DNA of 64,000 bases from a bacterium (GTDB lineage Bacteria > UBP6 > UBA1177): NCBI GenBank assembly GCA_022703485.1, contig JAKLDO010000001.1, positions 5,834 to 69,833 of the forward strand, read 5' to 3'. Of this stretch, positions 3,424 to 61,821 are shown in pieces (the first letter of the stretch is position 1; every line of letters begins with the position of its first letter). The translations under genes and the position numbers were made by a program. The notes beneath the pieces are model-generated. The model searched no databases, was not told the origin of the DNA, and saw only the letters and a list, made by a program, of their open reading frames with translations.

Positions 3424-3436
3424 CACTAATCCGTTT

Positions 3437-6011: not shown

Positions 6012-6915
6012 TTTCCAGCATCTTCTCTATATCAAGCACAATAAGAAATTTCTTTGTTCTGGGATCGTTTGCAATGAACTTTATGAAATCCGATCTTATT
6101 TTCCTGCTGAGCATGGGAGCCGTGTGTGTATTTTCGGGCTCAAGAAAAACCACATCATCGATCGAATCAACGACACACCCTTTTATTTTATCTCTTACTT
6201 TGAGCATGAGGAACACCGTGAACTCACCGTATGATATATCTTTTATGCCGAAAACCTTTCTAAGATCGATAACCGGCACGACATTGCCTCTCAGGTTCGC
6301 AACGCCCAGAAAATGTGCAGGCTGGTTGGGAATTTTCGAGCATGGAAGCATCTGTTTCATGTCATACACAAGTTCTATCGGAACAGCATAGTGCTCTGTC
6401 CCTATCCTGAAAGAGAGAAATTCATTGTTCTTCTCCTCTTCTACCTTTTCGCTTTCATTCCTAACTTCCCGCGTTTCCTGTTTTTTCTCTTTTTTCTCTG
6501 CTGTTTCACCCGACGAGATCGGGGTCTCCTGTTTAAGTGACAGAAGTTTCTCAAAGTCCTTTTCTATTTTCGAAATATCTTTCTTTTTTACTTTTCCCCC
6601 GCTCTTAAGCGCGGTATCCACTATTTCAAAAGTTATCTCTATCAGTTCAGCTGTCACCGGGCCTGCCGGCAGTTTCTTTGCAACTGCGAAAGATATCATT
6701 TTATTCAGTTTTTCAGATGCGGCCTCAAGATCGGCGAGTCCTGTAACAGAACACCCGCCGCTTATTGAACGGACAGCCCGCAGAAGCGTACTGAACGCAT
6801 TGAACTCAGGATACTCCCCTTTTTCAAGAAGATCCGTGAAATCGCTGAACTGCTCCCGCACCTCATCGATCTGCGACCTGGATTCCTGAATAAATTCGGA
6901 TATTAAATTTTCCAT
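6004..6915 (-). CDS. CheW-domain protein with an N-terminal degenerate Hpt-like domain
   Basis: C-terminal CheW domain: FLSFRIGTEHYAVPIELVYDM...LGVANLRGNVVPVIDLRKVFG. The N-terminal ~100 aa align with the cheA Hpt domain of this operon (LLRAVRSISGGCSVTGL versus FRSVHTLKGSSGMVEYS), but the His position is Arg. A Lys/Glu-rich linker lies between the two domains. Confidence 0.7.
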   Translation of the reverse strand: MENLISEFIQESRSQIDEVREQFSDFTDLLEKGEYPEFNAFSTLLRAVRSISGGCSVTGLADLEAASEKLNKMISFAVAKKLPAGPVTAELIEITFEIVDTALKSGGKVKKKDISKIEKDFEKLLSLKQETPISSGETAEKKEKKQETREVRNESEKVEEEKNNEFLSFRIGTEHYAVPIELVYDMKQMLPCSKIPNQPAHFLGVANLRGNVVPVIDLRKVFGIKDISYGEFTVFLMLKVRDKIKGCVVDSIDDVVFLEPENTHTAPMLSRKIRSDFIKFIANDPRTKKFLIVLDIEKMLEND

Positions 6916-7422
6916 CTACAGCGTGTCCATTATGTTAAGTTCCGTGTCCGAAAGGATCTTCGCCATATCAAGGACTATCGTGAAAAGGTCCTTTTCCTTC
7001 TTTATCATTCCTCTTATGAAGTTCGCCTTTAATCCGGAAGAGAACCTCGGCGGAGGCTGTATCTCAGAGCTTCTGACCTTTATGATGTCGTTCACCTTGT
7101 CAACAACAACTCCCATCACCCTTCCGCTTACATCGACTATCATGATAACCGTGAACTTTGTTATGTCCTTGTCAGGAACATCGAATTTCTCTCTGAGGTC
7201 TATTACTGGCACCACTATCCCTTTAAGGTTAAGCACACCTTTAACGAAAGGAGGCATTGCCGGTATTTTTGTCAGTTTTTTATAGCTTGTTATTTCATAC
7301 ACCTTCAGTATGTCCGTGGCATATTCCTCCTCACCCACTCTGAAAAGTATGAACTGGTGGAATTTCTCCTCTTTCACCGCATTCTCTTTCTGAGCACTGT
7401 CCAACCTGCCTGATCTGTTCAT
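6916..7422 (-). CDS. cheW: chemotaxis coupling protein CheW
   Basis: Single CheW domain: FILFRVGEEEYATDILKVYEI and LNLKGIVVPVIDLREKF. Overlaps the cheA stop. Confidence 0.85.
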   Translation of the reverse strand: MNRSGRLDSAQKENAVKEEKFHQFILFRVGEEEYATDILKVYEITSYKKLTKIPAMPPFVKGVLNLKGIVVPVIDLREKFDVPDKDITKFTVIMIVDVSGRVMGVVVDKVNDIIKVRSSEIQPPPRFSSGLKANFIRGMIKKEKDLFTIVLDMAKILSDTELNIMDTL

Positions 7423-27264: not shown

Positions 27265-27480
27265 GTGACGGAAAAAACAAAACAGAACAAGCTCAAGGAT
27301 TACAGAGAGCAGCATCTCATTAGCAAGACCGAACTGGCAAGAAATGCCGAGATATCGCTTGTCACACTTGACAGGATAGAAAAAGGGTTCGATTGCAGAC
27401 TTTCAACTAAAAGAAAAATCATAGAAGCTCTCGGGCTTCATCTTGACGATAAAGACGAAATTTTCCCTGAAAACTCCTAA
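27265..27480 (+). CDS. XRE-family helix-turn-helix protein
   Basis: 71 aa with HTH ISKTELARNAEISLVTLDRIEKG. GTG start with a GAGG Shine-Dalgarno sequence. Confidence 0.65.
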   Translation: MTEKTKQNKLKDYREQHLISKTELARNAEISLVTLDRIEKGFDCRLSTKRKIIEALGLHLDDKDEIFPENS

Positions 27481-28061
27481 ACTGAAAGATCTCTTGCAAT
27501 TGTTTTGACTATCGCTTTGAATGTTTCAAAAACTTTATGTCCGCTTGCCGCAGAAGCCACATATTCTTCATATTTCCCTTCCGGATTGAATATCCTGCTC
27601 ATTTCATCAACGCTCATTGAGTTGGGAAGATCTGTTTTATTATACTGGATAACCATCGGGATGCGGTCAAGTATCAATGAGTTCATAAAAAGGTTCTTTT
27701 TCAGATTTTCGAAACTTTCGATGTTAGCATCAAGACGCTCTTTCTGCGAATCGACAACAAAAACTATTCCGTCACAGCCTTTTAGAATAAGCTGTCTTGA
27801 AGCGTCATAAAAAACCTGTCCGGCAACTGAATAGAGGTGCACCCTTAGCTTCATCCCCTTTATCTTTCCTATGTTCAGAGGAAGAAAATCAAAAAAAAGC
27901 GTCCTCTCTGTCTCGGTCTTTATGGATATCATTTTCCCCCTTGTGGAGGGGTCTACATTTTTGTATATATATTCAATATTAGTTGTTTTTCCTGACAATC
28001 CTGAACCGTAGTAAACTATCTTGCAGGTTATCTCTTTGAAGATCCTGTTTATCTGGACCAA
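27477..28061 (-). CDS. mglA: Ras-like small GTPase MglA
   Basis: Near-collinear with Myxococcus MglA as I remember it: CKIVYYGSGLSGKTTNIEYIY, TERTLFFDFLP, LYSVAGQVFYDASRQLILKG, VVDSQ, IQYNKTDL. TTG start preceded by AGGGGG. Confidence 0.85.
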   Translation of the reverse strand: MVQINRIFKEITCKIVYYGSGLSGKTTNIEYIYKNVDPSTRGKMISIKTETERTLFFDFLPLNIGKIKGMKLRVHLYSVAGQVFYDASRQLILKGCDGIVFVVDSQKERLDANIESFENLKKNLFMNSLILDRIPMVIQYNKTDLPNSMSVDEMSRIFNPEGKYEEYVASAASGHKVFETFKAIVKTIARDLSV

Positions 28062-28220: not shown

Positions 28221-29588
28221 ATGAACCAGTTGAACAACATTTCGGTCGTTGACGGAAGATATAAAAAACATGTTGAACAGCTTGAAGATATTTTTTCAGA
28301 ATACGGTCTTATCAAAACAAGGGTGAGCGTTGAGATCGAATGGCTTCTGTTCATCCTTAACGATCTGGGATTCCATGTCCTCTCTAAAGATGAAACAGCG
28401 TCTGTAAGGTCCATCTCTGACGGCTTTAACAGAGAAAGCGCCGTGATGGTCAAAAATATTGAAAAAACCACCAATCATGATGTGAAAGCCGTAGAATACT
28501 ACATAAAAAAGGAACTTGAGAACAGAAAGCTTGAAAAAATAAAAGAATGGGTCCATTTCTGCTGTACATCCGAGGACATAAACAACATCTCCTATGCCTT
28601 GATGTTCGAAAACGGCAGAAAGATCGTTCTTGAAAATCTGGAAGAGCTCCTCAAGTCGCTGGAATTCTTTGGAAAAAAATACAAAGCGACACCCATGATG
28701 TCCAGAACTCACGGGCAGCCTGCAACACCGACGACCGTCGGAAAGGAGTTTATCAACTTCGCATCAAGGATACTCCGGGAGAGAGATCTGTTTGAAAAAG
28801 TATCCGTTGAATGCAAGATAAACGGTGCAACCGGTAATTTCAATGCACATTATTTTGTGAAACCGGAAATAGACTGGATAGATGCATCATCAAAATTCAT
28901 AACGGCAAAACTCGGGCTTAAACCCCTTCCTTGGACTGCACAGATTAACAATTATCATTACATATCCGAAATGCTCCACACCATGATAAGGATATCTTCA
29001 ACTGTTATTGACATAGACCGGGATATGTGGGGATACATTTCTTTTAATTATTTCAAACAGAAGACCAAAGAAGGTGAAGTGGGATCATCAACCATGCCGC
29101 ATAAAGTGAATCCGATCGATTTCGAGAACAGTGAAGGAAATCTCGGCATCGGAATATCTTTAATGGAACACATGTCCGTAAAACTTCTCAACTCAAGATT
29201 CCAGAGAGACTTGACCGATTCAACTGTTCTTAGAAATTCAGGGCTCGTTTTCGGATATCTCATGATCGGTCTGAAAAGCACACTTAAAGGACTTTCAAAG
29301 ATCGAAATAAACATTCCCAAGATAAGCGAAGACCTTGCAGACAACCCAGAACTTCTTGCTGAGCCGGTCCAGACAGCAATGAGAATGTACGGAGAGGAAA
29401 ATCCTTACGAAAAGCTGAAAGCGCTCACAAGAGGCACAAGAATTACACAGAAAGACCTTGACAACTTCATTAACGGACTTGAAAAAGTCCCGGAAGAAGT
29501 TAAAAACCGCATGAAACAGCTTTCTCCGGAAAAGTATACGGGGCTTTCAGAAAAACTCGTCGACCTCTATTTCACATTAAAAAGGTAG
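28221..29588 (+). CDS. purB: adenylosuccinate lyase
   Basis: Fumarate-lyase signature GSSTMPHKVNP. 455 aa. Confidence 0.9.
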   Translation: MNQLNNISVVDGRYKKHVEQLEDIFSEYGLIKTRVSVEIEWLLFILNDLGFHVLSKDETASVRSISDGFNRESAVMVKNIEKTTNHDVKAVEYYIKKELENRKLEKIKEWVHFCCTSEDINNISYALMFENGRKIVLENLEELLKSLEFFGKKYKATPMMSRTHGQPATPTTVGKEFINFASRILRERDLFEKVSVECKINGATGNFNAHYFVKPEIDWIDASSKFITAKLGLKPLPWTAQINNYHYISEMLHTMIRISSTVIDIDRDMWGYISFNYFKQKTKEGEVGSSTMPHKVNPIDFENSEGNLGIGISLMEHMSVKLLNSRFQRDLTDSTVLRNSGLVFGYLMIGLKSTLKGLSKIEINIPKISEDLADNPELLAEPVQTAMRMYGEENPYEKLKALTRGTRITQKDLDNFINGLEKVPEEVKNRMKQLSPEKYTGLSEKLVDLYFTLKR

Positions 29589-37178: not shown

Positions 37179-38519
37179 ATGTGGAAAAAGATCGTTGAAG
37201 AGTTGAAAAAATCAAACAGTGACGGAATAATAAACGCTTTCATAAAACCGCTTTTTGCAGTAAAGGAAAGCCGGGAAGAAATAATTGTAGGCGCCCCGAG
37301 TGAGCAGATCCTTCATGTTCTGGAAAAAAACGGCTGGACAGATCAGATAAAAAAAATAGCTTCGCATCTTTTTGATGATTCAACGGTCGTAACTTTTATT
37401 ATCAGACAGAACGACACGGAGGAGGAGATCCAGTCGACCCTGCCATTTTCAAATGTACAGAAAGATATAGAACGGGCTGCAAAAAAAGAGACCTCTATAA
37501 TGAAAGAGTTCACTTTTGACAATTTTGTCTCAGGACCTTCAAATCAGACTGTCTTTGCTGCTGCAATGGGAATAGCCAAAAATCCCGGAATAAATTACAA
37601 TCCGTTTTTCGTTTACGGGGATTCAGGCCTTGGTAAGACCCACATCATTCAGGCCATCGGTAATTATGTGATAACACACAAGAACAAATCTGTCTACTAT
37701 ACAACAGCAAATCAGCTTCTTGTTGATTATGTGGCTGCTCTTTCCTCAGGGACTATGAACAAGTTCAGATCTAACATTCTTTCAAACGATGTTCTTCTTG
37801 TTGACGACATTCAGTTTCTCTCCAAGAAAAGCAGTACTCAGGAAGAATTTTTCTATATTTTCAACACATTTTACGAATCAGGAAGACAGATTGTTCTTAC
37901 ATCAGACAGATATATTTCTGAGATAAAAGACATCGACGACCGTCTTAGAAGCAGATTCATTATGGGCGTTTCGCTTGATATAAAACCGCCTGAATTTGAG
38001 ACCAGGCTCGCTATCGTTCTTAAAAAATCAGAGCTTTATAAAATAAATATTGATGATGAGACTGCTAGGTTCGTTGCCGCCAATCTAAAAAACAATGTAA
38101 GAGAGATAGAAGGGGCTTTAAAAACACTGCAGATATCTTCAGAGCTCATGGGAATAACAAAGATATTCAAATCATTTGCTGAAGACATATTAAAAGATAC
38201 CATTAAAAAGAAAGGCTCGGTCGGTGTTGATGAAATAATAAAGCTCACATCAACCAACCTTCATGTTAAAAATTCCGACATTCTTTCAAACAAGAGAAGT
38301 AAACAGATATCTCTCAGCAGACAGATCGCAATGTATCTTGTAAAAAAATATACATCCATAACGCTTAAAGAAATAGGAAATATCTTTGGAGGAAGAAATC
38401 ATGCAACAGTAATTTCCTCCATATCAAAAATAGAGCAGCTTATGAGTGAGGACATGAATATAAAGAAGATTGTAGATAAACTTGAAAGAGAAATAGATGA
38501 ATCAAAGAAAAATATGTAA
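37179..38519 (+). CDS. dnaA: chromosomal replication initiator DnaA
   Basis: Walker A GDSGLGKTHIIQAIGN, LLVDDIQFL, and the C-terminal DNA-binding region SKRSKQISLSRQIAMYLVKKYT...GGRNHATVISS. Confidence 0.95.
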   Translation: MWKKIVEELKKSNSDGIINAFIKPLFAVKESREEIIVGAPSEQILHVLEKNGWTDQIKKIASHLFDDSTVVTFIIRQNDTEEEIQSTLPFSNVQKDIERAAKKETSIMKEFTFDNFVSGPSNQTVFAAAMGIAKNPGINYNPFFVYGDSGLGKTHIIQAIGNYVITHKNKSVYYTTANQLLVDYVAALSSGTMNKFRSNILSNDVLLVDDIQFLSKKSSTQEEFFYIFNTFYESGRQIVLTSDRYISEIKDIDDRLRSRFIMGVSLDIKPPEFETRLAIVLKKSELYKINIDDETARFVAANLKNNVREIEGALKTLQISSELMGITKIFKSFAEDILKDTIKKKGSVGVDEIIKLTSTNLHVKNSDILSNKRSKQISLSRQIAMYLVKKYTSITLKEIGNIFGGRNHATVISSISKIEQLMSEDMNIKKIVDKLEREIDESKKNM

Positions 38520-38691
38520 CAAATGTCAGAATTTTTGGTGTTAAAAGAATGTTAACTTTTAAATTCACAGAACATCAACATTTATCTTCACATTTTTACA
38601 CCATGTTAGTATTTGTTTTTATTACTCTTTTTTTTAATATCAACATTTTTTCAAGCTTATTATTATATATTTCTATTTATGGAGTAATCCT
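38520..38691. other. candidate oriC / DNA-unwinding region (dnaA-dnaN spacer)
   Basis: 172-bp AT-rich spacer with ttattattatatatttctatttat. Only degenerate DnaA-box-like 9-mers are present (ttatcttca at 38582, atatcaaca at 38637, each 2 mismatches to TTATCCACA). No perfect box was seen. Confidence 0.3.
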
Positions 38692-39834
38692 ATGATTAAA
38701 TTAACCTTCAAAAGGGATGAGCTTCTTAAAGCTCTTGATCACTGCAGTTCATCAATTGAAAAAAAACATGCAATGCCTATCCTAGGTCATGTTCTTTTTA
38801 AATTTAAGGGCAATGAATGTACTTTAAATGCTACAAACCTTGAAACAACTGTAATGGCTAAAATAATATTCCAGGAACCTGTTGATGAAGGAAAGATAGC
38901 AGTTCCTGCAAAGTATATTCATGATATATGTAAAGTTGCAAGGGGGGAAAATATACTTTTTAAATATGATACTTCATCAAACATACTTGATATAACAGCT
39001 GAAAAATCAAAGTATACAGTTCCGTGTGCTGACGCAAATGACTTTCCGTCAATACCTTCAACTAAAAAAACATCTTACAGTTTTGAAATAGGAAGACTTA
39101 TAAATTCTTTTAAAAAGCTTCAATTCTCAATGACGGAACATAATGTTAACAAGGCATATTCAGGTGTTCTTATCATTAAAGTCAAAGACGGTGATAAATA
39201 TGTAATAGAAATGGTCACCACAGACATTCACAGGATATCTGTTCTGACTTTAAAGAATTTCAGTCTGGATATTGAAGGAATAGATAAGGGAATAGTGATA
39301 TCAGGTAAAAATTTCACAGAACTGTCAAAAATATTCTCTGAAACAGAAAAAGCTGAAGTGGCGATCGATGATGACAAGATGTTCATTACAGGAAATAATG
39401 TTGTTTTCATATCAAGACTTCTTAAAAATGAGTTTCCTAATTACAGGACTGTTATAGGCGGGTATGCAGTGATAGATTCTAAAGATGCTTCACTGATAAA
39501 TAGAAAAGAACTGGTTGACGGAGTTAAAAGAGTTATAGCCCTGAATTCTGAAGAAAAGATATGGGCTACAAAATTTGATTTCAAGGGATCTGTTCTAAGT
39601 ATGACCGCAAGTTCTAATTTCGGTGGAAATTCAAATGATGAGATACTTGTAGAAAAACCGTTCAATATTGATAAAAGTGTAGGAATAAACGCAAGATATC
39701 TTCTGGATGTTCTTTCAGTTCTTGATAAACAGCAGGTCTCTATAATTGTGGAAGAAGGTTTAAAACCGCTTACCATAAAAGAAGAAACTGATAATTTCTA
39801 CTATGTTCACATGGTAATGCCTTTAAGGATGTAG
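38692..39834 (+). CDS. dnaN: DNA polymerase III beta sliding clamp
   Basis: MIKLTFKRDELLKAL...MPILGHVLF...LNATNLETT. 380 aa, ending MPLRM. Sits in the canonical position after dnaA. Confidence 0.85.
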   Translation: MIKLTFKRDELLKALDHCSSSIEKKHAMPILGHVLFKFKGNECTLNATNLETTVMAKIIFQEPVDEGKIAVPAKYIHDICKVARGENILFKYDTSSNILDITAEKSKYTVPCADANDFPSIPSTKKTSYSFEIGRLINSFKKLQFSMTEHNVNKAYSGVLIIKVKDGDKYVIEMVTTDIHRISVLTLKNFSLDIEGIDKGIVISGKNFTELSKIFSETEKAEVAIDDDKMFITGNNVVFISRLLKNEFPNYRTVIGGYAVIDSKDASLINRKELVDGVKRVIALNSEEKIWATKFDFKGSVLSMTASSNFGGNSNDEILVEKPFNIDKSVGINARYLLDVLSVLDKQQVSIIVEEGLKPLTIKEETDNFYYVHMVMPLRM

Positions 39835-39843
39835 TCATAATTT

Positions 39844-40881
39844 ATGAAACTGACGCACATACTTATTAAAAATTTCCGCAACCTGTCAGAAAGAGATTTT
39901 TTTTTAAATCAAAAGACCGTACTTAACGGTCCCAACGGTTCCGGAAAGACATCGGTAATAGAAGCGGCCTTTTTTTCCTTCACTGGAAGATCTTTTAGAA
40001 CATCGGATATTAAAGAACTGATAAACAGAGAAAGCAGATTCCTTTTCGTAAGTTCTGATACAACAGATCTGTCCGGTTTTAAAAGAGAGCTTTCTATCGG
40101 TTTTGATTCATCGGGACAGAGAAAAATACTTATTGACGGTATAAGTTCGTCAAGAAAGGACCTTATGAAAGTGGTTTTTGCTGTTATACACACTCCTGAA
40201 GATATGGAGATAATACAGGGGGGACCCAAAAGAAGAAGAGATTTCATAGACAGGATATGTTTCATGGAGGACGGAAGTTATTTTGATGACATGATGGAAT
40301 ACGGCCGGTATGTCAGGCAGAAGAACATACTGTTAAAGAAAAACGACGGAAAGACCGTATCCTATCTGAATAAAGCCGCGCTGCCTCTTATTAAAAGGAT
40401 AAGGGACCTTAGAAAAAAAGCGTGCGAAATGATAAATGAAGAGTTTAAGATGTACAATAGTGACATTTTTCCTGAGCTTGAATTCTCAATAACATGTCCG
40501 CAGGATGAAGAAATTGAAGAAAAGCTCAAAGTAAAGCTTCCGAAAGAACTGGAAAAAGGCTATACTTTGTACGGACCGCACCTTGATAACATAGTTGTAA
40601 AGACAGAACTTTGTGATTCAAGATCGGGAGTATCAATGGGGGAATCCTATCTCATATCTCTGGTGCTCAAAATGTCAGAGCTCAATCTTTATTCAAAAAA
40701 AGATCTGTTTCCGGTGTTTTTCATTGACGATCTTTTTGTGTTTCTTGACAGCAAAAGGAAACACGATCTTTACAGCAGAATAGTAAAACTTAAAAATCAG
40801 GTCATCATGACGAGTTCAACAGAAACGGCATGTGATTTTAAAGATATAGAGTTTAATAACATAACTGATGGAGGATATTAA
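39844..40881 (+). CDS. recF: DNA replication and repair protein RecF
   Basis: KNFRNL..., Walker A LNGPNGSGKTSVIEAAFF, and Walker B FFIDDLFVFLD. Confidence 0.85.
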   Translation: MKLTHILIKNFRNLSERDFFLNQKTVLNGPNGSGKTSVIEAAFFSFTGRSFRTSDIKELINRESRFLFVSSDTTDLSGFKRELSIGFDSSGQRKILIDGISSSRKDLMKVVFAVIHTPEDMEIIQGGPKRRRDFIDRICFMEDGSYFDDMMEYGRYVRQKNILLKKNDGKTVSYLNKAALPLIKRIRDLRKKACEMINEEFKMYNSDIFPELEFSITCPQDEEIEEKLKVKLPKELEKGYTLYGPHLDNIVVKTELCDSRSGVSMGESYLISLVLKMSELNLYSKKDLFPVFFIDDLFVFLDSKRKHDLYSRIVKLKNQVIMTSSTETACDFKDIEFNNITDGGY

Positions 40882-51515: not shown

Positions 51516-52670
<1,155 letters not shown>

Positions 52671-52880: not shown

Positions 52881-52936
52881 AATGAAAGCGGTTTACGATC
52901 TTTACATAAAAAATATTTTTGAGGAGGATACAGCCA

Positions 52937-55510
52937 ATGTTAAAAAAGTTGATCGTACTGATGATTTTCGTTCTTTCTTCCGGACTGATCTTTGCAAATG
53001 AACTGAAAAACCCTGTACTTGGTGAAACTGTTTCCATAAATGGAAAGCTTTATGACACTTTCTATTATTATAAAGGTCAGCCACAGTACCTTCTTCAGAA
53101 GTATGATATGATATCGATACCTTTTTCTGTGAATATTCACACCTTGAACGGTCTGAAGCTGGACGGGGTGTATCTTTCGGAAGTGATAAAGGCTGTGGTG
53201 AAAGAAGAAGGGCATGTTAAAGCTCACAAAGTTCAGATAGATGAAAATGACAGAACCAGCTGGATAAGAATAAGGAACCTTCTTTCAAAGAACGGAATTC
53301 CATCCTGGCCTGTTGTAACATACCATGCAAAGGACCCTCTTATTCTTGACGGAATGATGAACATTCAGTTCTATAAATATACTTCTGCTGAAAAAAGAGA
53401 AGATGTTTTTAAAAGATATGGATTGACGGTTGCTGAGATATCGCCGAGAGATCCTGAGTTCTATACAGTTTCTCTGCCTGCCGGAACAGATCCCTTCGCA
53501 GTGGCCAACACGCTTGTTGAAAGAGATCTTGTGAGGTGGGCTCAGCCCAACTGGTTCTGGCACCACGAATTGAAATCAACAACACCCAATGATACTTATT
53601 TCGGGAATCAGTGGCATCTGACCCAGATACTGGCTCAGTATGCATGGGATACAGAGACCGGAGCAGGCAAAGATGCGAGGATAGCCATAGTTGACAGCGG
53701 CGTTGACACGACACATCCGGACCTCAATGTTCTTTCGGGTTATGATTTTATTTCAAATGATAATGATCCTAATCCGAACAAAGCGCAGGACGATCATCAG
53801 GGCGTTCCCCACGGAACATCCTGCGCAGGACTTGCCGGAGCAAAGACAAATAACGGTCTTGGTGTGGCAGCTTCATGCTGGGGCTGTCCGATAATACCTA
53901 TCAGGCTCATCGGTTCGTACCTTTATCCCAATACAATAAAAGATGCTCTGGAATATGCTGTCGACCAAGGTGCATGGGTAGTGAACAACAGCTGGGGTCC
54001 TCAAGGGACCGATAACTCCGGCAACTGCATTTCTTCTCCCGCAGACAATAATCAGTCTTCAGCTGTCGATTACGGCCGGACAAACGGAAGAGGAGGAAAA
54101 GGAACAGTCATGCTCTGGGCGGCAGGTAACGATTCTTGCAACACATCCTATCAGGGATTTTTAAAAGATAATGACATTTTAGTGATAAGTGCTCTAGAAT
54201 CAAGCGGTTCAATGGCAAGCTATTCCAATTTCGGTGTCGAGATAGACCTCAGTGCGGGAGCAGGTAATTACACTACCGACATACAGGGTTCCTACGGTTA
54301 TAATTACAACACGGGATATGACGGTGACAATTTAAGCGATCTGAACTATACGAGCGTTTTTGCAGGAACAAGTGCGGCCACACCGGTTTCCTCGGGTGCC
54401 GTGGCACTGATGATATCCGCAAATACAGAGCTTACTTTTTCAGGAATAATGAACTGCGCAAAAGCATCTGCGGCAAAAACATCAAAAACATGTTCAAAAG
54501 GGGGATGGGTCTCTCAGACCGATCCATGGCTGGCATCAGGCTCAAAAGATCACTCTCCGTGTTTTGGTTTCGGTGTTGTAGATGCCAACGCAATGGTTAG
54601 CGGTGCCAAGAACGGTACTTGCGGAGCCTGTGTTTCCACTGCAGATATGGATCTCTGTTTCGGTGACGGTTATGACAGGGATGATGATTGTGATGGGACT
54701 GTGGACAATGACTGTGCCGATGGCGGGAACGGAAGGGCTGGTGATGCATGTACAAAATCAGAAAACTGCCTTAATACCGCAGAAACACCTATTTGTATTA
54801 CAGATGCGGGTTGGACAGGCGGGTACTGTTCAGCGGAATGTACAAAGGCCTCAGATTGCTATAACAGCAATAAGGGGGTTGAATGTTATGGAGGAAAATG
54901 TATAGCGGAATGCGATTTCAATGAGGTGCGTACAGGATATGAATGTCTTTCCAACAAGATTCTTCCTGAGGGAACCGAAGTTGTGGCCAACTGTGGTAAC
55001 GACCTCAAAGAAGGTGACGAAGTATGTGATGGCGGATACAAATCCTGTAAATCAATAGATGACAGTTTCACTGGCGGATACGCAAACTGCAGAGATGATT
55101 GTAAAGGATACGATACTTCTACTTGCGAAGGCGGCGGCGGCGAATTGTGCGGCAACGGCAACCTTGATAACGGCGAGATCTGTGACGGCGAAGAGATAGA
55201 CTGTGCAGACCTTGCTTCTACACCGCCTGTTGGTACGGCGACATGTAAGAATGACTGTTCCGGATGGGATAAATCTGACTGTAAGGACGAGGCTGACACA
55301 GGAAACACCGGTGATACCGGCGGCGATACGGGAAATACCGGAAATACCGGAGACACAGGTGATACGGGAAGCTCCAACTGCGGTGACGGTGTAATTAATC
55401 TCGGTGAACAGTGCGATGACGGTAACAAGATAAGCGGAGACGGCTGCTCGGCATACTGCCTGAAAGAGAAAAAATCATCATCTTCGGGCTGTTCCGCTGT
55501 TGTTCTTTAA
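52937..55510 (+). CDS. secreted subtilisin-family (S8) serine protease with C-terminal Cys-rich repeats
   Basis: Start moved to ATG 52937 (SD GAGGAGG), signal MLKKLIVLMIFVLSSGLIFA. Catalytic triad contexts IAIVDSGVDTTHPDL, HGTSCAGLAGA and GTSAATPVSSGAVALM. C-terminal modules: DDDCDGTVDNDC, CGNGNLDNGEICDG and CGDGVINLGEQCDDGNKISGDGCSAYC, plus a DTGNTGDTG tract. Ends KKSSSSGCSAVVL. Confidence 0.85.
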   Translation: MLKKLIVLMIFVLSSGLIFANELKNPVLGETVSINGKLYDTFYYYKGQPQYLLQKYDMISIPFSVNIHTLNGLKLDGVYLSEVIKAVVKEEGHVKAHKVQIDENDRTSWIRIRNLLSKNGIPSWPVVTYHAKDPLILDGMMNIQFYKYTSAEKREDVFKRYGLTVAEISPRDPEFYTVSLPAGTDPFAVANTLVERDLVRWAQPNWFWHHELKSTTPNDTYFGNQWHLTQILAQYAWDTETGAGKDARIAIVDSGVDTTHPDLNVLSGYDFISNDNDPNPNKAQDDHQGVPHGTSCAGLAGAKTNNGLGVAASCWGCPIIPIRLIGSYLYPNTIKDALEYAVDQGAWVVNNSWGPQGTDNSGNCISSPADNNQSSAVDYGRTNGRGGKGTVMLWAAGNDSCNTSYQGFLKDNDILVISALESSGSMASYSNFGVEIDLSAGAGNYTTDIQGSYGYNYNTGYDGDNLSDLNYTSVFAGTSAATPVSSGAVALMISANTELTFSGIMNCAKASAAKTSKTCSKGGWVSQTDPWLASGSKDHSPCFGFGVVDANAMVSGAKNGTCGACVSTADMDLCFGDGYDRDDDCDGTVDNDCADGGNGRAGDACTKSENCLNTAETPICITDAGWTGGYCSAECTKASDCYNSNKGVECYGGKCIAECDFNEVRTGYECLSNKILPEGTEVVANCGNDLKEGDEVCDGGYKSCKSIDDSFTGGYANCRDDCKGYDTSTCEGGGGELCGNGNLDNGEICDGEEIDCADLASTPPVGTATCKNDCSGWDKSDCKDEADTGNTGDTGGDTGNTGNTGDTGDTGSSNCGDGVINLGEQCDDGNKISGDGCSAYCLKEKKSSSSGCSAVVL
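55295..55369 (+). repeat. degenerate (G)DTGNT-coding repeat tract
   Basis: Encodes [25 protein letters not shown]. It carries the same peptide repeat as 52318..52465 but is diverged at the DNA level. Confidence 0.5.
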
Positions 55511-55550
55511 TTTCCATACTTTATTAATATCAACAGATCAAGGTGTCAAA

Positions 55551-57197
55551 ATGCATTTAAAGACCATCTGGGTTCTATCCGTTATTTTTTCTTTTTTACT
55601 GTTTTCCTGTAAAGAAGAAAGCGAAAAAAAGGATGATGCCGATATCTTAAATGACAGCGATCAGTCTGACCTTGCGGACGAGGATGTGCAGGACGATCCG
55701 GCAGATACTGATGAGGCAGCTGATGAAGATGCGGTTATCAATCCCGAATTTGAAGAAGGGCCTTACGGAACAGGTTTCGGTGAAACAGCGGGCGATTTCA
55801 CGGTTACCACTGAAAAAGGGGACTGGAATTTTCAGGAGAACAGAAAAAAAGACGAGAACTATATTTTTATAATTTACAGACCGTCAAACAGCGAAAGTAC
55901 TGCTATCTGGAAGACCGACATGATAAGAATGTTCGAAAGAACCCCGGACAACACACATTACTTCTTTGCTGTTGACGGAGTTCAGGACCTTCTTGATGAA
56001 AAGATCTCAATTATCAAAGAAACGATCGACAGTGCTTTCGAGATCAGCGGAAGGACATCAATAAAGGAAAAAATTCACATTGTTACAAAACCGTTAAAGG
56101 AAGCTGACGGCTGGATAAAGGACTGGCTTGCGGCGAACAAGGACTTTTTTCTCGGAATTGACCGCTTTCAGAAGATCAGAAAGGCCGGAATGTTCCATTC
56201 GTGGGAATCATCGTCTCTGGACCCCGTGTTCGAGTTCGTTTACAAAGAAGCCGAACTTTACAATTATGAAGAAGGGCTGTGGAACAGGCTGAACGGAGAC
56301 CCTGCAGGCATCAAAGTCATTAAGGGGATAGACGGACTTCCGTTTGAAGGTGACGGCTGGACGCAATATCTTTATTTTACTGCAGATATTCCCGAATTTG
56401 AAAAGACCGGCAATTTGTACATAGACTTAACTCAGGTGTGTGACGATCCTGCAACCTGTGAATGGGATAGAATTCAGCAGCTTTTCCTTTGCAAAGACAC
56501 GACCGATGAAAGTTGTACCGTTGAGATAGGAAGATGGATAACCACTTACGGCAGAAGCGGCAGATGGCTTACGGACATAACTCCGCTCACCCCTCTGTTT
56601 CCCAAAGCAGGTGAATATAAATTCAAGTTTACAGTAAGCGGAGATCAGTATGTAAACTATCTGAACTTTGTCTATAAAGAAAATGACAGTGAAACAAAAG
56701 CTGTTGAGATCATTGATCTTTTCAAGGGAACTGTTCCTTTTAACGAGACATACAACGATCAGTGGACGGAGACGGAGATAGAGATTCCTGATAGTGCAGG
56801 AAAGGTTATGATCTCTTCCTACATTACGGGTCACGGCAACGGATCGGAAGTGGCAAACTGTGCTGAATTCTGTCCTTTTGAAGCTGTTTTTTATGTGAAC
56901 GGAACTCCATATGAAATAGATTTTAACAATGCAGGGACGGACAGGGGATGTTTTGACCTTGTTAATGAAGGGGTTGTTCCCAATCAGTACGGTTCGTGGC
57001 CTTTCGGCAGGGCAGGCTGGTGCCCCGGGCAGGACGTGAAGCTCATAAACATTGATATAACGGAAAGTATTGTAAAGGGGCAGAAGAACATTTTCACATA
57101 TAGCGCCTTTCTTGATGGTGAAATTTATGTTCCCGAAGTCACCGATCCATCGGGTTACAGGGCTGAAATTCCGCTGACCAGCTATGTTATCTACTAG
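55551..57197 (+). CDS. PNGase F-like (peptide-N4-(N-acetyl-beta-glucosaminyl)asparagine amidase F family) lipoprotein with unassigned N-terminal domain
   Basis: Start moved to ATG 55551. Lipobox VIFSFLLFSC, followed by KEESEKKDD. The C-terminal ~250 aa match my recollection of Elizabethkingia PNGase F. CEWDRIQQ...IGRWITTYGR matches CDEWDRYA...IGRFITPY. NCAEFCPFEAVFYVNG...GSWPFGRAGWCPGQDV matches GCAEWCFRTHTIAINN...GNWAPDRAGWCPGMAV. Confidence 0.7.
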   Translation: MHLKTIWVLSVIFSFLLFSCKEESEKKDDADILNDSDQSDLADEDVQDDPADTDEAADEDAVINPEFEEGPYGTGFGETAGDFTVTTEKGDWNFQENRKKDENYIFIIYRPSNSESTAIWKTDMIRMFERTPDNTHYFFAVDGVQDLLDEKISIIKETIDSAFEISGRTSIKEKIHIVTKPLKEADGWIKDWLAANKDFFLGIDRFQKIRKAGMFHSWESSSLDPVFEFVYKEAELYNYEEGLWNRLNGDPAGIKVIKGIDGLPFEGDGWTQYLYFTADIPEFEKTGNLYIDLTQVCDDPATCEWDRIQQLFLCKDTTDESCTVEIGRWITTYGRSGRWLTDITPLTPLFPKAGEYKFKFTVSGDQYVNYLNFVYKENDSETKAVEIIDLFKGTVPFNETYNDQWTETEIEIPDSAGKVMISSYITGHGNGSEVANCAEFCPFEAVFYVNGTPYEIDFNNAGTDRGCFDLVNEGVVPNQYGSWPFGRAGWCPGQDVKLINIDITESIVKGQKNIFTYSAFLDGEIYVPEVTDPSGYRAEIPLTSYVIY

Positions 57198-57328
57198 CAA
57201 CACCAGGTGTAAATCTTAGTAAACACCGCCCCGTCCCGGGTTCCTCTGTTTAACATAAAATTAACACAAAGACAGGTGTTTTTTCATATTGTCATGGAAT
57301 TATTGATGTTTTTAGTCTTGAAAAACTA

Positions 57329-57344
57329 TGGCACGGTATTTGCT
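57329..57344 (+). promoter_or_regulatory. sigma54 -24/-12 promoter (perfect core consensus), overlapping an extended -10 sigma70 element
   Basis: TGGCACGgtatTTGCT equals TGGCACG-N4-TTGCW at every specified position. TGcTATAAT at 57341-57349 is also a perfect extended -10. Both predict a start near 57355. Confidence 0.55.
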
Positions 57345-57354
57345 ATAATGTGTC

Positions 57355-57554
57355 GCGTTCATTTAAAGTTGAAAAAGGAAGAGGTTGTTCTTCATTCATC
57401 GGTCAAAAAATCGCGGAAACGCATTCTAACAACACCAACACTGTGATTAACTTCAAATCAACCGCCGAAAGGCTTCTCGACTGAAGCTCCCAGGAGCAAC
57501 ACTTCCAACGCTTAAAATAAAAATGCCCCCGGTTCTGCCGGGGGCGTTTTTTTT
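57355..57554 (+). ncRNA. candidate ~200-nt small RNA (or leader for a 14-codon peptide); family unknown
   Basis: Promoter at 57329-57349 and terminator at 57525-57554, with no ORF of 60 aa or more between them. Internal hairpins at 57378-57393 (gaaga/tcttc), 57413-57422 (gcg-gaaa-cgc) and 57472-57487 (gcttc/gaagc). CA-rich unpaired tracts: aacaacaccaacac and caacacttccaac. The only coding option is TTG 57385..57429 (MFFIHRSKNRGNAF). Confidence 0.4.
57525..57554. terminator. strong rho-independent terminator (usable in both directions)
   Basis: GCCCCCGGttctgCCGGGGGC: a perfect 8-bp GC-rich stem (57525-32 pairs with 57538-45). It is followed by g plus T8 (57547-54) and preceded by aaaataaaaat. 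Confidence 0.7.
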
Positions 57555-57570
57555 AAGTTAATTTTTTTGA

Positions 57571-59154
57571 TTATTTGTCGTCAGTGCCGGGTTTCTTATT
57601 TGATTCATACCACTGGAAATTATCAAGAATGATCTCGGAATCAAGAATATGGTCCAGGGCATCCCAGATAGCGAACCTGAGGGTGATCTCTTCGCCTGGA
57701 ACGACATTCCCTCTTGTTATGAGCCAGCCTGTTCCGCCATTCTTGTCATCACCGTAAAGCCCTGTTCCGTCAAGTTCGCCAGGTCCGAGGGTGCAGAACT
57801 GTGAGTAGTTGTTCGTCGGATCGTATCCGCAGGCCAGCATTCCGCCGTTACAGCAGACACGGAAAAGCCCGGCCTTTGCAAGATTTATTCCAACCGGATT
57901 GTTGAACTCATCCCTTGCGAGGTTTTTATCCATGGGGTTCTGTAGATTTATATCACTTGAAGTAAATGTCGAGTCAAGCAGAGCGACAAAGAAATCGTTG
58001 TACTGGCACACATATTCCGGGAATTCCCTGCTGAAGAAATAAATGTCAACACTGAAAGAACCTGCGTTTTTGGGAACCTTTACTTTCACCTGAAGCATTA
58101 CAGGGTCATTAAGCGGTTCTTTGCCGGGGTCTCCGCCGGTCAGACCTCCGCAACCCGGGGAGCTGGGGAACTGATTTCCGTTAGCTGTATACCAGTCGAC
58201 CGGAGCGTTGGACCTTGTACACATGAACTCTGTGGACGTTCCGTCCTGTTTTGCTTCAGCTGCAGGTATCGGATCGTCTGCAATACCTGATGACATCATG
58301 AAGAAATTGCTTCCTTCGTGGGGTGCTATGACATTTCCGAACTTTGAAAGTATTGCATAGGAATCGGGGTTCGGAGGCGTTGCTGAACAGTCTATTGTAG
58401 TCGTGTTGCCCTGTGCATCCTGACCCTGTACCTGGAATGCCTGGCTTGTTGCCGTTCCGTCAGGGAAAAGCATTTCCGCACTTACAAGACCGTATCCTTT
58501 TGTTTCTGTCACAGGACATATTCCCATTGCCTTTGCCATATCCATCGGGTCTGTTGAATCTTCACTCAGACCTGAGTCGCAGGATTCCTTTTCATCAACA
58601 TTTCCGTCACAGTTGTCATCAACGCCGTTCTCGGGTATTTCGAATGAGGAAGGTCCCACTCTTTCAGGAATTGTGCATTCCCATGTTGTTTCACAGCAGT
58701 CGCCGTTGCAGTAGTTGAAGCCGTCACCGTCAATATCGATAACATTGGCATCGGTCGTGTCTTCCCCGTCACAGTTCTGATCGATCCCGTCTCCGCATAT
58801 CTCGGCTTCAGGAAGCACCTGTCCCACACACTCGCTCCAGTCGGTACCGTCAACGACACATGTAGCTATACCGGCCTGGCATATTCCTACATTTTTTGAT
58901 CCGCTCGGACCTTCAAAGCATTCTCTGGTCTCTCCCGGAGTGCATTCTACATACATTCCGCCTTCATCGATGTCTGGTTTTTCTGTATCATTTTCACTGC
59001 CTTCATCGTCTCCTGTCTGCTCTTTGTCCTGAGTAGTGTTTCCGTTATCGTTGACGGCATTTTCTGTATCTGTTCCGCCGTCATCGTTCACTGTGCAGGA
59101 AAGCATAAATATTCCGGCAGCAAGTAGTAAAAAAATAAAACCGATTTTTTTCAT
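57571..59154 (-). CDS. exported lipoprotein with D-x-D-C-D-G Cys-rich modules and a choice-of-anchor-L-like C-terminal domain
   Basis: Lipobox LLLAAGIFMLSC, followed by TVNDDGGTDTEN. Modules CGDGIDQNCDGEDTTD and GVDDNCDGNVDEKESCD. C-terminal FFSREFPEYVCQYNDFFVALLDS ... LRFAIWDALDHILDSEIILDNF resembles the FaSEEYpEy...NDvF...IaDvgDgilDS pattern. Confidence 0.5.
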   Translation of the reverse strand: MKKIGFIFLLLAAGIFMLSCTVNDDGGTDTENAVNDNGNTTQDKEQTGDDEGSENDTEKPDIDEGGMYVECTPGETRECFEGPSGSKNVGICQAGIATCVVDGTDWSECVGQVLPEAEICGDGIDQNCDGEDTTDANVIDIDGDGFNYCNGDCCETTWECTIPERVGPSSFEIPENGVDDNCDGNVDEKESCDSGLSEDSTDPMDMAKAMGICPVTETKGYGLVSAEMLFPDGTATSQAFQVQGQDAQGNTTTIDCSATPPNPDSYAILSKFGNVIAPHEGSNFFMMSSGIADDPIPAAEAKQDGTSTEFMCTRSNAPVDWYTANGNQFPSSPGCGGLTGGDPGKEPLNDPVMLQVKVKVPKNAGSFSVDIYFFSREFPEYVCQYNDFFVALLDSTFTSSDINLQNPMDKNLARDEFNNPVGINLAKAGLFRVCCNGGMLACGYDPTNNYSQFCTLGPGELDGTGLYGDDKNGGTGWLITRGNVVPGEEITLRFAIWDALDHILDSEIILDNFQWYESNKKPGTDDK

Positions 59155-59235: not shown

Positions 59236-61764
59236 TTATAATGTGAGTGAGCATCCTGATGAAGATCCTGATTTTCCTTCGTTCTCTTCGTCTGTTACAG
59301 GATCGTTCTCAAAATTTGCTTCGTCAGTTACTTCAGCATCAGTATCATCTTCGTCACCGGTCTCTTCTTCAACATCTGCGGTTGCGACAGAAATACTGCT
59401 GATAGTGCCTGCTGATGAAGCGGTGTTTATGAACTGGAAATAATAGCGCTGCCCTTTTTCAATACCGTAAAGCCCCCATGTTTTAATTGAACCGGTACCT
59501 TCAGCTTTTGCATCTCCGTCCATGAGAACCGTTGTTTTAAGGGATTCTTCGTCAAGAACATATTCAACAGGAGCGCCTTTTCTGTAATATACATCTAGTG
59601 CCGGAGTTCCTGTTCCGCCACCGATAAGAGATCCGCCGCTGCTTGCGGCAACGGTTGCAGTTACTTTCAGACCGTTCTTGTCTGAATCTGCAGGAACATC
59701 GTAGTAGAACTGGAGATAGCTCGGAGCAACATTGATCTCTTCACCGTTAACAGTGATGGTTATGCCGCTTCCGCCGCCTGTGATCCCGCCAGTCGGATCT
59801 TCTTCGCCTTCTGCAGCAGCAGCACCGGCGATATAGGAGATTTTAATTTTCTCGTTGGCTGAGCGGGCTCTCTTTTCTTCAAAGAAATTCCTGTCCGTGA
59901 GTATTTTTTCTATCTCGGTCTTCTTTGCCTTGAAATTATCATCTTTTCCTACTTCGTCCATGAATGTATCGGCCCAGAGTTTGAAAGATGCATCGCCATC
60001 GCCGATAGCATAAAGAGTTTTAAGTATGATTTTCATGAGGTTGTCGCGATGAACCTGAGTATCGGTATCACTTCCCTTGATGAGGTTGTAAATTTCCCAG
60101 TTAGCGCCGAGAAGCGGCTGTCCGTCCCAGTGAACTTCAGCGATGAAATCTTCAAAGACTTTGTATTCGTTCAGAGCGGTTCTCATACAGTAGAAGTCAC
60201 CCTCTTTGTCCATTTCGACAGTTCCGTCCTGGGAAGCCGCCCATTTTATTATTGCTTCGGAAGCGTATTCACCGGTGCAGGAATTGTCTGTCATGATAAA
60301 AGCAAAAGTGTCTGCGATTCCTTCATGAACAGAGCCGGGCTCGTTTGACATACCGTATTTATCAGTAAATTCCATACCTGCAATACCTGCCGTGTAGACT
60401 GTTGCGTGACCGAACTCGTGATATACGACATCGCCGTCATACCCGAAATCTCCCTTTGTCCCCTGTCCGAATATCAGCAGGTCGCCTTTAACACCGAACT
60501 GTGCAAGAAGATCTCCCATCATGGGATTATCTTGCGAGAACATAGCATTGTCCATCGGAACAAGTGTCATTGATCCGTTCATGATGGCTTCCATGCTGAG
60601 CTCGGGCGTTGTAAAATTACCGATGACATTAAGAGGCCTTGTTTCATCGTTATTCTGAAGATAGAACTCTCCTTCCGCAGCGACATCTTTGTAGAGTCCT
60701 CTGATGTATTTGTATATCTTTGAAGCGTGATAATACATTGAAATTTCAGCGCATCTGTCTATTTTTTCTTCTGTCATGCTGGCTTCTACGAACTCATGTC
60801 CCTCTTCACAGTCATCATAAATGAAGCTTCCGTTATAAACTTTGTTGGCAAGCTGTGTCGGACTGCACATCGGAACTGAGATCGGGTATCCTGTCATTTC
60901 CTCAAGACTGACCTTTTCATCCTTATCGGGGCAGTTGAAAGCCTTTATCTTTCTGATACCGTTTTTGTCGATATCTGTTGTAAGAAAACCCTGTTCTTCA
61001 GCTGTGAACCCTGCGTCATCAACTGGAGCGACCCACGGAAGCTCAACATCTGAAAGTTCGGGGGTCACAAGAGGATTGAACTCCCATATTTTAGCCATGT
61101 CTGTCGGTGTTCCTGTAACTGTGTCCTCATCGGGTGTCTCTGTGTCTGCATCGGCAAAATATGTGGAGTTGCCTGATTTTATTACTTTTCCGGTAAGTGC
61201 ATTTATGATATGGAACCTGCTGTCAGCAAGACTTACAGGTGTAAATCTGATTTTATACGCAGGAACAAAAGCTCCCATGTGTCTTACGATCATCTTTTCA
61301 GCGCTGTATTTCTTCGGCATTTTTTTGATATTTCTGATATCCATGGCCGATTTCACAGCTTCTTTTTCAGAGATCATCTTTGTGATGTCAATGTTAATCT
61401 TTCCGAGACTGTTGTTGATCCTGTCGATCTTTCCGTTTCTTACAGTAAGAACAGTGTAAATTCCGTCAACGCGGATGCCTTTGTAGAAAGGAACGAACTT
61501 ATAGATCTTAGTTCCGTCGATGTCCACCGCTTTGAAAAGTTTCGGTTCAACATCTTTTCCGATGGCGAAATTCTTGTAGAAAGCTTCTTTAACGAACTTT
61601 GTCAGTGTCAGTTCATCTGCCTTGACCGGAATGCTTATCCCGGTGATCATGACAGGGTGACTGGAAGAAGCGGAGACTGCTGCTTTTGAGAACATGCCTG
61701 TCCCTGAAGCGGACAGAGCCGCAGTCATAAGCAGTACTGCTAAAATAGTTGAAAAACTCTTCAT
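59236..61764 (-). CDS. secreted zinc metalloprotease, gluzincin of M36 (fungalysin)/M4 type, with FTP/PepSY-like propeptide
   Basis: Start moved to ATG 61764 (SD GGAGG, 5-nt spacer), signal MKSFSTILAVLLMTAALSASG. Propeptide-like FVPFYKGIRVDG...ADSRFHIINALTGKV. Zinc site VVYHEFGHAT with the third ligand 27 aa on, in SVHEGIADTF. The C-terminal beta domain has an acidic tail ending GKSGSSSGCSLTL. Confidence 0.7.
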   Translation of the reverse strand: MKSFSTILAVLLMTAALSASGTGMFSKAAVSASSSHPVMITGISIPVKADELTLTKFVKEAFYKNFAIGKDVEPKLFKAVDIDGTKIYKFVPFYKGIRVDGIYTVLTVRNGKIDRINNSLGKINIDITKMISEKEAVKSAMDIRNIKKMPKKYSAEKMIVRHMGAFVPAYKIRFTPVSLADSRFHIINALTGKVIKSGNSTYFADADTETPDEDTVTGTPTDMAKIWEFNPLVTPELSDVELPWVAPVDDAGFTAEEQGFLTTDIDKNGIRKIKAFNCPDKDEKVSLEEMTGYPISVPMCSPTQLANKVYNGSFIYDDCEEGHEFVEASMTEEKIDRCAEISMYYHASKIYKYIRGLYKDVAAEGEFYLQNNDETRPLNVIGNFTTPELSMEAIMNGSMTLVPMDNAMFSQDNPMMGDLLAQFGVKGDLLIFGQGTKGDFGYDGDVVYHEFGHATVYTAGIAGMEFTDKYGMSNEPGSVHEGIADTFAFIMTDNSCTGEYASEAIIKWAASQDGTVEMDKEGDFYCMRTALNEYKVFEDFIAEVHWDGQPLLGANWEIYNLIKGSDTDTQVHRDNLMKIILKTLYAIGDGDASFKLWADTFMDEVGKDDNFKAKKTEIEKILTDRNFFEEKRARSANEKIKISYIAGAAAAEGEEDPTGGITGGGSGITITVNGEEINVAPSYLQFYYDVPADSDKNGLKVTATVAASSGGSLIGGGTGTPALDVYYRKGAPVEYVLDEESLKTTVLMDGDAKAEGTGSIKTWGLYGIEKGQRYYFQFINTASSAGTISSISVATADVEEETGDEDDTDAEVTDEANFENDPVTDEENEGKSGSSSGCSLTL

Positions 61765-61821
61765 CAAAACCTCCATGTGTACATAATTATTGCGGTTGTG
61801 CCAAACACTAAAATCTTTCTG

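Follow-up and report, generated by a model that had tools for sequence, protein, structure and literature searches.

The window examined here, a 64,000-nucleotide stretch of contig JAKLDO010000001.1 (assembly GCA_022703485.1), contains a 373-bp gap (57198-57570) between two convergent genes for secreted proteins, and our comparisons indicate that this gap carries the gene for a small RNA (sRNA) with a promoter of the sigma-54 type on its 5′ side and an intrinsic terminator at its 3′ end. An earlier inspection of the same DNA, which we call the sequence-only reading, had proposed that an independently transcribed, sigma-54-dependent regulatory RNA lies at this place. Comparison with related genomes strongly supports that proposal: 11 variants of the locus have identical -24 and -12 elements, conservation is bounded, and the predicted fold covaries. 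As the same reading had stated, no open reading frame (ORF) of at least 60 aa lies within 57198-57570, where the largest are 56 and 44 aa. The predicted sRNA and the genes that surround it are as follows.

52919-55510, plus strand: S8 peptidase gene, upstream flank.
55500-57197, plus strand: PNGase-F-like (N-glycanase) gene, directly upstream of the gap.
57355-57554, plus strand: predicted sRNA of about 200 nt, with a predicted start near 57355 and its 3′ end in a U-tract.
57571-59154, minus strand: choice-of-anchor-L/MopE gene with a 527-aa product, the convergent flank.
59236-61776, minus strand: gene for an 846-aa protein with an FTP propeptide motif, beyond the choice-of-anchor-L gene.

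Relatives of this locus were found with the 527-aa flanking protein, by a scan of reference genomes followed by a protein search and contig look-ups. The scan identified two loci, L006 (81% identity) and L007 (73%), and the protein search added L083, L084, L085, L086, L088, L089, L091 and L095 (63-82% identity). These 10 species-level relatives are of low GC content (40-44%) and have the same convergent pair around a gap of 345-390 bp, with the L095 contig ending inside the upstream gene. The sequence-only reading had held that absence of the element from every relative would speak against it; the RNA is present in all 10. A scan of metagenome contigs for a DNA pattern (ATTCTNACAACACCAACAC) returned 46 loci, only two of which, the L006-like L061 and L077, proved to be homologues; the others were chance matches. 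The RNA was not found in the DNA fetched for more distant relatives of the flanking protein (L008-L017, L090, L092/L093 and L094), which include a high-GC sister group (L008-L010, L090 and L092), nor in the viral contigs searched, and neither blastn nor a covariance model found a second copy in the window. By these sequence searches, the RNA family is so far restricted to a single clade of uncultured bacteria.

The promoter and the elements upstream of it occupy the following positions.

57206-57227, unstranded: candidate site for an activator (enhancer-binding protein), the inverted repeat GGTGT-N12-ACACC, just 3′ of the N-glycanase stop codon.
57290-57302, plus strand: possible bending site resembling that of integration host factor (IHF), TGTCATGGAATTA (compare WATCAA-N4-TTR), 39 nt upstream of TGGCAC.
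57329-57344, plus strand: sigma-54 promoter TGGCACGgtatTTGCT / TGGCACGGTATTTGCT, with TGGCACG at -24, the spacer gtat, and TTGCT at -12.
57341-57349, plus strand: extended -10-like TGcTATAAT (TGCTATAAT), overlapping the -12 element.

The perfect sigma-54 site at 57329-57344 that had been reported from the sequence is indeed there: it matches TGGCACG-N4-TTGCW at every specified base and is the sole exact match on either strand of the 64 kb. None of 100 dinucleotide-preserving shuffles of the window contained an exact match, and when up to two mismatches were allowed, the window yielded one further site, a poor one. Across the orthologous loci the specified bases are invariant while the free bases drift. 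Both TGGCACG and TTGC are 100% identical in 10 species-level variants, compared to 68% identity in the N4 spacer, and the promoter of an eleventh variant, L095 (TGGCACGCTATTTGC), agrees with the invariant -24 and -12 elements. The GC at -13/-12 places the predicted start at about 57355 (±2), and a conserved GTTCATT begins at 57357; this onset of the conserved RNA is consistent with a sigma-54 start near 57355.

The extended -10 at 57341-57349, from which a second form of the polymerase had been suggested to initiate, is present in the window and is confined to the window's species, since the relatives have TTATAT, ATATAC, ATACAT or TTATCA at this position. No -35 element accompanies TGcTATAAT, which may be, at most, a lineage-specific gain of an overlapping sigma-70 promoter. 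A published parallel is glmY/glmZ, for which certain enterobacteria have a sigma-70 promoter that overlaps the sigma-54 one and uses the same start site (PMC3045617).

Upstream of the promoter, seven species (the L007 group and L095) have two TTTACA(C) repeats past the N-glycanase stop codon, at 130 and 117 bp (±1) from the T of TGGCAC, and the 112 nt that follow, up to the promoter, are only 49% identical and contain no gaps. The corresponding TTTACA sites lie 128 and 105 bp from TGGCAC in L084, and the site retained in the window clade lies 109/107 bp from it, closer by about two helical turns. The right arm of GGTGT-N12-ACACC in the window is the counterpart of the first TTTACAC repeat in relatives, with an invariant ACAC in a spacer that is otherwise 42% identical, and we infer that the inverted repeat and the TTTACA repeats are the activator site. 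In the L007 group, an IHF-like WWTCAR-N4-TTA is found at a fixed distance of about 38 nt upstream of TGGCAC; the IHF-like site is a weak match to the consensus and is degenerate in L006 and L083. T-tracts in the upstream spacer may contribute intrinsic bending. The succession from repeats to bend site to -24/-12 is suggestive of the classical layout of an enhancer-dependent promoter.

The limits of conservation coincide with those of the predicted transcript. The mean pairwise identity among the 10 species-level variants changes along the locus in this way.

Last 28 nt of the N-glycanase gene: 0.62.
Spacer from the upstream repeat to the promoter: 0.42.
TGGCACG (-24): 1.00.
N4 spacer: 0.68.
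TTGC (-12): 1.00.
Positions -11 to -1: 0.52.
RNA body: 0.54-0.91.
CA-rich segment 57425-57457: 0.91, the highest in the RNA.
Terminator: 0.75.
The 16 nt past the terminator: 0.20.

Thus, conservation begins approximately at the predicted +1 (near 57355) and ends with the U-tract. On this sequence evidence, a chance promoter match cannot account for the pattern from promoter to terminator, which is the signature of a transcription unit.

The terminator had also been recognised from the sequence, and the analysis both upholds it and extends it to the opposite strand.

57525-57554, both strands: intrinsic terminator, with stem GCCCCCGG at 57525-57532, a TTCTG loop, stem CCGGGGGC at 57538-57545, a G, and T8 at 57547-57554.

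Its 9 pairs are 99% paired across the homologues. It is predicted on both strands because an A-run precedes the stem, and since it lies 17 nt, and its stem begins 26 nt, past the stop codon of the convergent gene (57571-59154, minus strand), it also ends the choice-of-anchor-L gene. No other plus-strand terminator is predicted between 57198 and 57518, so the upstream S8 peptidase/N-glycanase operon probably ends here too.

This arrangement raises the possibility that the RNA is mainly the 3′ untranslated region (UTR) of the S8 peptidase/N-glycanase operon, made by read-through and possibly processed, with the sigma-54 site playing a minor part or serving only in binding or as a roadblock. With no terminator predicted from the N-glycanase stop (57197) to 57519, read-through should include the RNA. 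The layout resembles that of 3′-UTR sRNAs which share the terminator of their mRNA, such as GlnZ (PMC9731577), and non-productive binding of sigma-54 is frequent in E. coli (PMC4591121). However, the 130 nt from the stop codon to the promoter are only 42% identical, with a sharp onset of conservation at the promoter and +1, and if transcription did not start here, it would be difficult to account for a complete, invariant -24/-12 with upstream repeats at a fixed distance. In addition, the L091 N-glycanase is in two fragments, and yet its RNA and promoter are intact. We consider it improbable that read-through is the principal source of the RNA, although such read-through is compatible with transcription from the RNA's own promoter and both routes may operate.

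The L091 N-glycanase gene (5975-7577) is called as fragments of 84 aa and 336 aa adjacent to the intact RNA, perhaps through a frameshift or an assembly error. In L084 (1-3991), AbiEii and hypothetical genes replace the gene for the 846-aa FTP-motif protein, and the RNA still lies between the choice-of-anchor-L and N-glycanase genes; this replacement links the RNA to the convergent choice-of-anchor-L/N-glycanase pair.

Conservation of structure was analysed with a covariance model, R1. The initial fold, from RNAalifold run on 11 sequences aligned with MAFFT, comprised the 5′ hairpin, the long-range closing helix, P2, a 3-bp helix in the CA tract, and the terminator, five elements in all. The 3-bp helix inside the invariant CA tract was excluded from R1 because it never varies, and the P3 hairpin, which could be seen by eye but was misaligned in the initial alignment, was included. 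R1 matches the window at 57354-57553 with 176.8 bits; its only full-length matches are the 11 syntenic loci (156-208 bits), with a 5′-truncated match at the end of the L087 contig (127 bits). The elements of the RNA upstream of the terminator are as follows.

57358-57373, plus strand: P0, 5′ hairpin UUCA-loop-UGAA; 4 pairs, 97.9% of cells paired, nearly invariant, and present in the single-sequence folds of all homologues.
57377-57392, plus strand: 5′ strand of P1 (GGAAG..GUUGUUCUU), which pairs with 57492-57506 and carries a purine run.
57412-57423, plus strand: P2, hairpin GCG-GAAA-CGC; 2 of 4 pairs compensatory (C-G in 7 sequences versus G-C in 5; G-C to A-U once).
57425-57457, plus strand: conserved single-stranded segment, proposed seed or binding platform, with 91% mean pairwise identity.
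57464-57473, plus strand: P3, hairpin GCC-GAAA-GGC; 2 compensatory pairs, 81% paired.
57492-57506, plus strand: 3′ strand of P1 (AGGAGCAAC..CUUCC), with an invariant single-stranded UCCC (57488-57491) directly 5′ of it.

The proposed pairs are standard in 95.8% of 384 cells (12 sequences), compared to 38-53% when the partners are slid by 1-3 columns, and compensatory changes are found at 7 pairs versus 1 in each slid control. On four of five measures, at most 1 of 500 column shuffles matched the observed value; the fifth, the number of further pair types, was reached by 61 of 500 shuffles and is not distinctive. P1 has 11 pairs, about 98% paired, of which 3 show compensatory changes. P3 is the least certain part of the alignment, with a stem that is kept around a loop of varying sequence and length. 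The minimum-free-energy fold of every homologue taken alone gives the same architecture, the folding z-score of the window RNA is -5.65, and the G-U pairs favour the plus strand, with 95.7% of cells paired versus 86.9% when the sequence is read as the minus strand.

Between P2 and P3 lies an invariant 16-nt CA-rich tract, ACAACACCAACACUGU (57429-57444), followed by AUUAACUUCAA; the tract has a predicted mean unpaired probability of 0.63-0.81 in all homologues. The sequence-only reading had described two unpaired CA-rich tracts, and the first (57428-57441) belongs to the best-conserved part of the locus, but the second (caacacttccaac, about 57498-57510) is paired, in the 3′ strand of P1. Similarly, it had placed a purine run (AAGGAAGAGG, 57375-57384) in a local hairpin; the run is sequestered, but by the long-range helix P1. 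The local hairpin itself fits less well than P1: it is 85.5% paired, has 0 compensatory changes, and loses one of its pairs in 7 of 11 sequences.

The fold bears on whether the locus has any function as RNA. None would be required if the locus were conserved as DNA only, or if its promoter had matched by chance next to an ordinary terminator that the two genes share; by our own arithmetic an exact consensus is expected by chance about once per few megabases, while convergent genes need a terminator in any case. Nevertheless, the promoter match is kept at every specified base in 11 species while its free spacer bases vary, and compensatory changes together with strand-specific G-U pairs indicate selection at the level of RNA. 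We therefore regard an absence of RNA function as very improbable.

We give the same slight credence to a small-protein mRNA, or a dual-function RNA with a micropeptide, which the sequence-only reading had offered as its alternative on the basis of a 14-codon TTG ORF (57385-57429). This ORF exists in the window, with the purine run AAGGAAGAGG ahead of its TTG resembling a Shine-Dalgarno sequence, and an ORF that begins with ATG (MKKERVALL...) is found in the L007 group. The TTG ORF, however, falls to 3 codons (TTG CTC TTC TAA) in L007-type sequences and reaches 34 in L006, compared to 14 in both the window and L083; the ATG ORF ranges from 16 to 49 codons, has no Shine-Dalgarno sequence and is missing from the window clade. 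No ORF keeps its frame or length among the homologues, the indels of the RNA are not multiples of three, and in the covarying helix P1 the purine run supplies the 5′ strand.

The sequence-only reading had recognised no known RNA family here, and the RNA indeed matches none in Rfam. No Rfam 15 family matched anywhere in the window at gathering thresholds, and when the E-value limit was relaxed, the window locus and its L007 homologue gave only hits of at most 28 bits, in the terminator alone. Qrr (RF00378), GlmY/GlmZ, 6S and all other Rfam 15 families were without a gathering-threshold score. As far as sequence and structure models can tell, the RNA is a new family of a familiar kind.

We favour, with a probability of about 0.55, a stand-alone, trans-acting sRNA that depends on sigma-54 and an activator and uses the exposed CA-rich tract (perhaps with UCCC) as its seed. 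In this model, an enhancer-binding activator that is not encoded nearby would bind the repeats about 105-130 bp upstream, possibly helped by DNA bending, and would open the TGGCACG-N4-TTGC promoter, with transcription starting near 57355 and ending at the GC-rich hairpin and U8 (57525-57554). The RNA would fold into a closed multi-branch structure, made of P0, the long-range P1 and the short hairpins P2 and P3, which would expose about 33 nt of near-invariant, unpaired CA-rich sequence (57425-57457) and the invariant UCCC. The exposed sequence would then pair with G/U-rich sites in several mRNAs elsewhere, converting the signal sensed by the activator into post-transcriptional control.

Several observations weigh against this model. 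The transcript and its start site are themselves predictions; the pair counts come from an alignment refitted to R1; and the sequences fall into two or three clades, which implies few independent compensatory events. The invariant unpaired sequence exceeds what one seed needs, and a protein-binding or tertiary-structured RNA would fit it as well. No activator gene adjoins the sRNA, unlike Qrr1, CrcZ and GlmY, and neither rpoN nor a cognate activator was found in the window or in the RNA-bearing loci. Finally, the conserved single-stranded segments gave no consistent pairing with the start regions of five neighbouring gene families at 10 loci (z mostly -1.5 to +1), and no conserved site for 8-mers complementary to the seed was found nearby.

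The same pairing results bear on the suggestion in the sequence-only reading that the RNA controls the adjacent hydrolase genes, whose translation-initiation regions show no consistent complementarity to it at the 10 loci; nothing in these sequence comparisons supports control of those genes by pairing. A duplex scan of the whole window gave no credible target. Its strongest non-self hit (-31 kcal/mol, near 28770) falls on the antisense strand of a purB-like gene (28221-29588), which on the plus strand has a stretch (about 28710-28770) similar to the CA-rich region of the RNA; we dismiss this hit as a coincidence because the strand able to pair runs antisense to the gene.

If the same sigma-54-dependent RNA acted instead by binding or sequestering a protein, or as a structured RNA, its helices would scaffold a platform for a regulator or ligand, in the manner of CrcZ with Hfq-Crc or CsrB with CsrA. 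The 33 unpaired nt at 91% identity, together with UCCC and a 5′ A-rich tract, would suit such a platform, the closed multi-branch architecture is typical of structured RNAs, and complementarity searches gave no target. In addition, P0 and P1 are separated by a purine tract resembling (ARN)n in 11 of the 12 sequences, L084 being the exception, and most have an A-rich stretch ahead of the terminator. On the other hand, the repeats that define sponge RNAs are absent: the CrcZ-type motif AAnAAnAA occurs 0 or 1 times per RNA, at non-homologous positions, the CsrB/RsmZ-type A(N)GGA occurs 0-3 times and is unconserved, and the CA tract is a single copy with no repeated array. The window has no Hfq or CsrA gene, although 64 kb is uninformative on this point, and an invariant region of 32 nt is also found in the Qrr RNAs, which act by base pairing. 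Action through a bound protein is thus possible but doubtful in our estimate.

Searches of the window for Hfq, CsrA, an RpoN box and the GAFTGA motif were all negative, and 64 kb is uninformative on these. Relatives and the conservation of the promoter lead us to expect rpoN and an activator in the RNA-bearing genomes. In the high-GC (56-62%) sister group, a gene for a GAF-domain sigma-54 activator lies directly upstream of the choice-of-anchor-L homologue (L009 2083-4101, L010 3875-5947 and L090 1930-3933), and in L090 recR follows that homologue. This adjacency may link sigma-54 control to the choice-of-anchor-L family; no sigma-54 promoter was seen before the choice-of-anchor-L gene in L090. 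Orthologues of the GAF activator (49-53% identity) are found in low-GC relatives, including a 2.83-Mb contig with a DnaA 72% identical to that of the window. A connection between this activator and the RNA through gene neighbourhood was rejected: L094 is of low GC content, the model detected no RNA copy there, and its activator adjoins an RCC1-repeat gene, with no sigma-54 site or RNA within 10 kb. A further reading, which we think unlikely, is that the RNA does not pair through a seed in the conventional way but represents a new class of structured, sigma-54-gated RNAs. Its invariant CA-rich multi-branch loop would bind a protein or small molecule, and the RNA would couple an environmental signal, sensed by a GAF-domain activator such as that adjoining the choice-of-anchor-L gene in sister lineages, to the production of secreted proteases and glycanases in this deep-branching lineage.

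The locus is part of the core chromosome, and the "hydrolase island" in which the sequence-only reading had set it is not borne out, because GC content is flat around the sRNA locus (0.42-0.47), synteny is conserved, and the window carries the dnaA-dnaN-recF cluster (37179-40881, at 37-41 kb), about 19 kb from the sRNA, as well as a chemotaxis operon. GC content falls to 0.32 at 38-40 kb and the GC skew changes sign at the dnaA-dnaN-recF cluster, so the replication origin probably lies in this region. The chemotaxis operon (927-9527, minus strand) is complete, with a response regulator with DUF4388, a HATPase-domain protein, CheB, CheD, CheR, two CheW-domain proteins and CheA, and the organism is therefore probably motile. 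Elsewhere in the window we noted a Ras/Arf-like small GTPase of 194 aa (27477-28061, minus strand), possibly MglA-like, and, inside a collagen-like ORF (51516-52670, minus strand), four repeats of the 8-mer CAGTGTTG and its flanks with an 18-bp period (52391-52462; consensus CCAGTGTTGCCTGTATCG), which probably encode a six-residue repeat. Contigs identical to that of the window come from anaerobic-digester metagenomes.

Qrr, CrcZ and GlmY/GlmZ are sRNAs that depend on sigma-54 (PMC4878744, PMC6296734, PMC3045617), and Qrr of Vibrio depends on LuxO together with sigma-54 (PMC4878744; bioRxiv 10.1101/2021.07.01.450815). The RNA described here is like Qrr in being a stand-alone sRNA gene with a canonical sigma-54 promoter, upstream activator sites (candidates here) and an intrinsic terminator. 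Both, moreover, have an extended unpaired stretch that is absolutely conserved, which in Qrr is a seed for multiple targets. The Qrr RNAs (RF00378) are Hfq-dependent. They are about 100 nt long with four stem-loops, whereas the new RNA is about 200 nt with a long-range closing helix, and it differs further in having no match in sequence or structure to Rfam, one copy per locus, no adjacent activator gene, and an origin in an unrelated, uncultured lineage.

GlmY and GlmZ of the Enterobacteriaceae, which are under GlrR and sigma-54, are of similar size (about 150-200 nt) and likewise have a sigma-54 promoter with upstream activator and IHF sites (both candidates here). Their overlapping sigma-70 promoter in a subset of species (PMC3045617) may be compared with TGcTATAAT, found in the window's species only. 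Nonetheless, the new RNA scores 11.6 bits with GlmZ_SraJ against a gathering threshold of 60, and is thus no homologue, and it lacks a glmS-type context. The mode of action of GlmY is mimicry that involves a protein (RapZ), of which the new RNA shows no sign. With CrcZ/CrcY, the CbrB- and sigma-54-dependent sponge of Pseudomonas, it shares dependence on sigma-54 and an activator (PMC6296734; predicted here) and an A/C-rich exposed tract. It is half the size of CrcZ and has no adjoining activator gene. CrcZ, moreover, has five or six AAnAAnAA motifs, compared to at most one, unconserved, in the new RNA.

The 3′-UTR sRNAs with their own promoter, DapZ and MicL, and the processed type represented by GlnZ (PMC9731577), resemble the new RNA in lying on the same strand directly 3′ of a coding gene with no terminator between, and in probably using the terminator of the operon. 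DapZ and MicL differ from it in the position of the promoter, which here is in the intergenic spacer rather than in the coding sequence, and is of the sigma-54 type with an upstream element of its own.

The new RNA leaves the general view of how sigma-54-dependent sRNAs work unchanged, and it will not surprise specialists. Such RNAs are central to quorum sensing (Qrr), catabolite control (CrcZ) and the supply of sugars for the cell envelope (GlmY/GlmZ), and to our knowledge the known ones all come from cultured Proteobacteria and Myxococcus. The RNA described here, by contrast, comes from an uncultured lineage of anaerobic digesters and combines a near-textbook promoter with a covarying fold. 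The covariance model defines a well-delimited RNA family with which these genomes can be annotated, and the sRNA offers an entry point to a sigma-54 regulon in these organisms.

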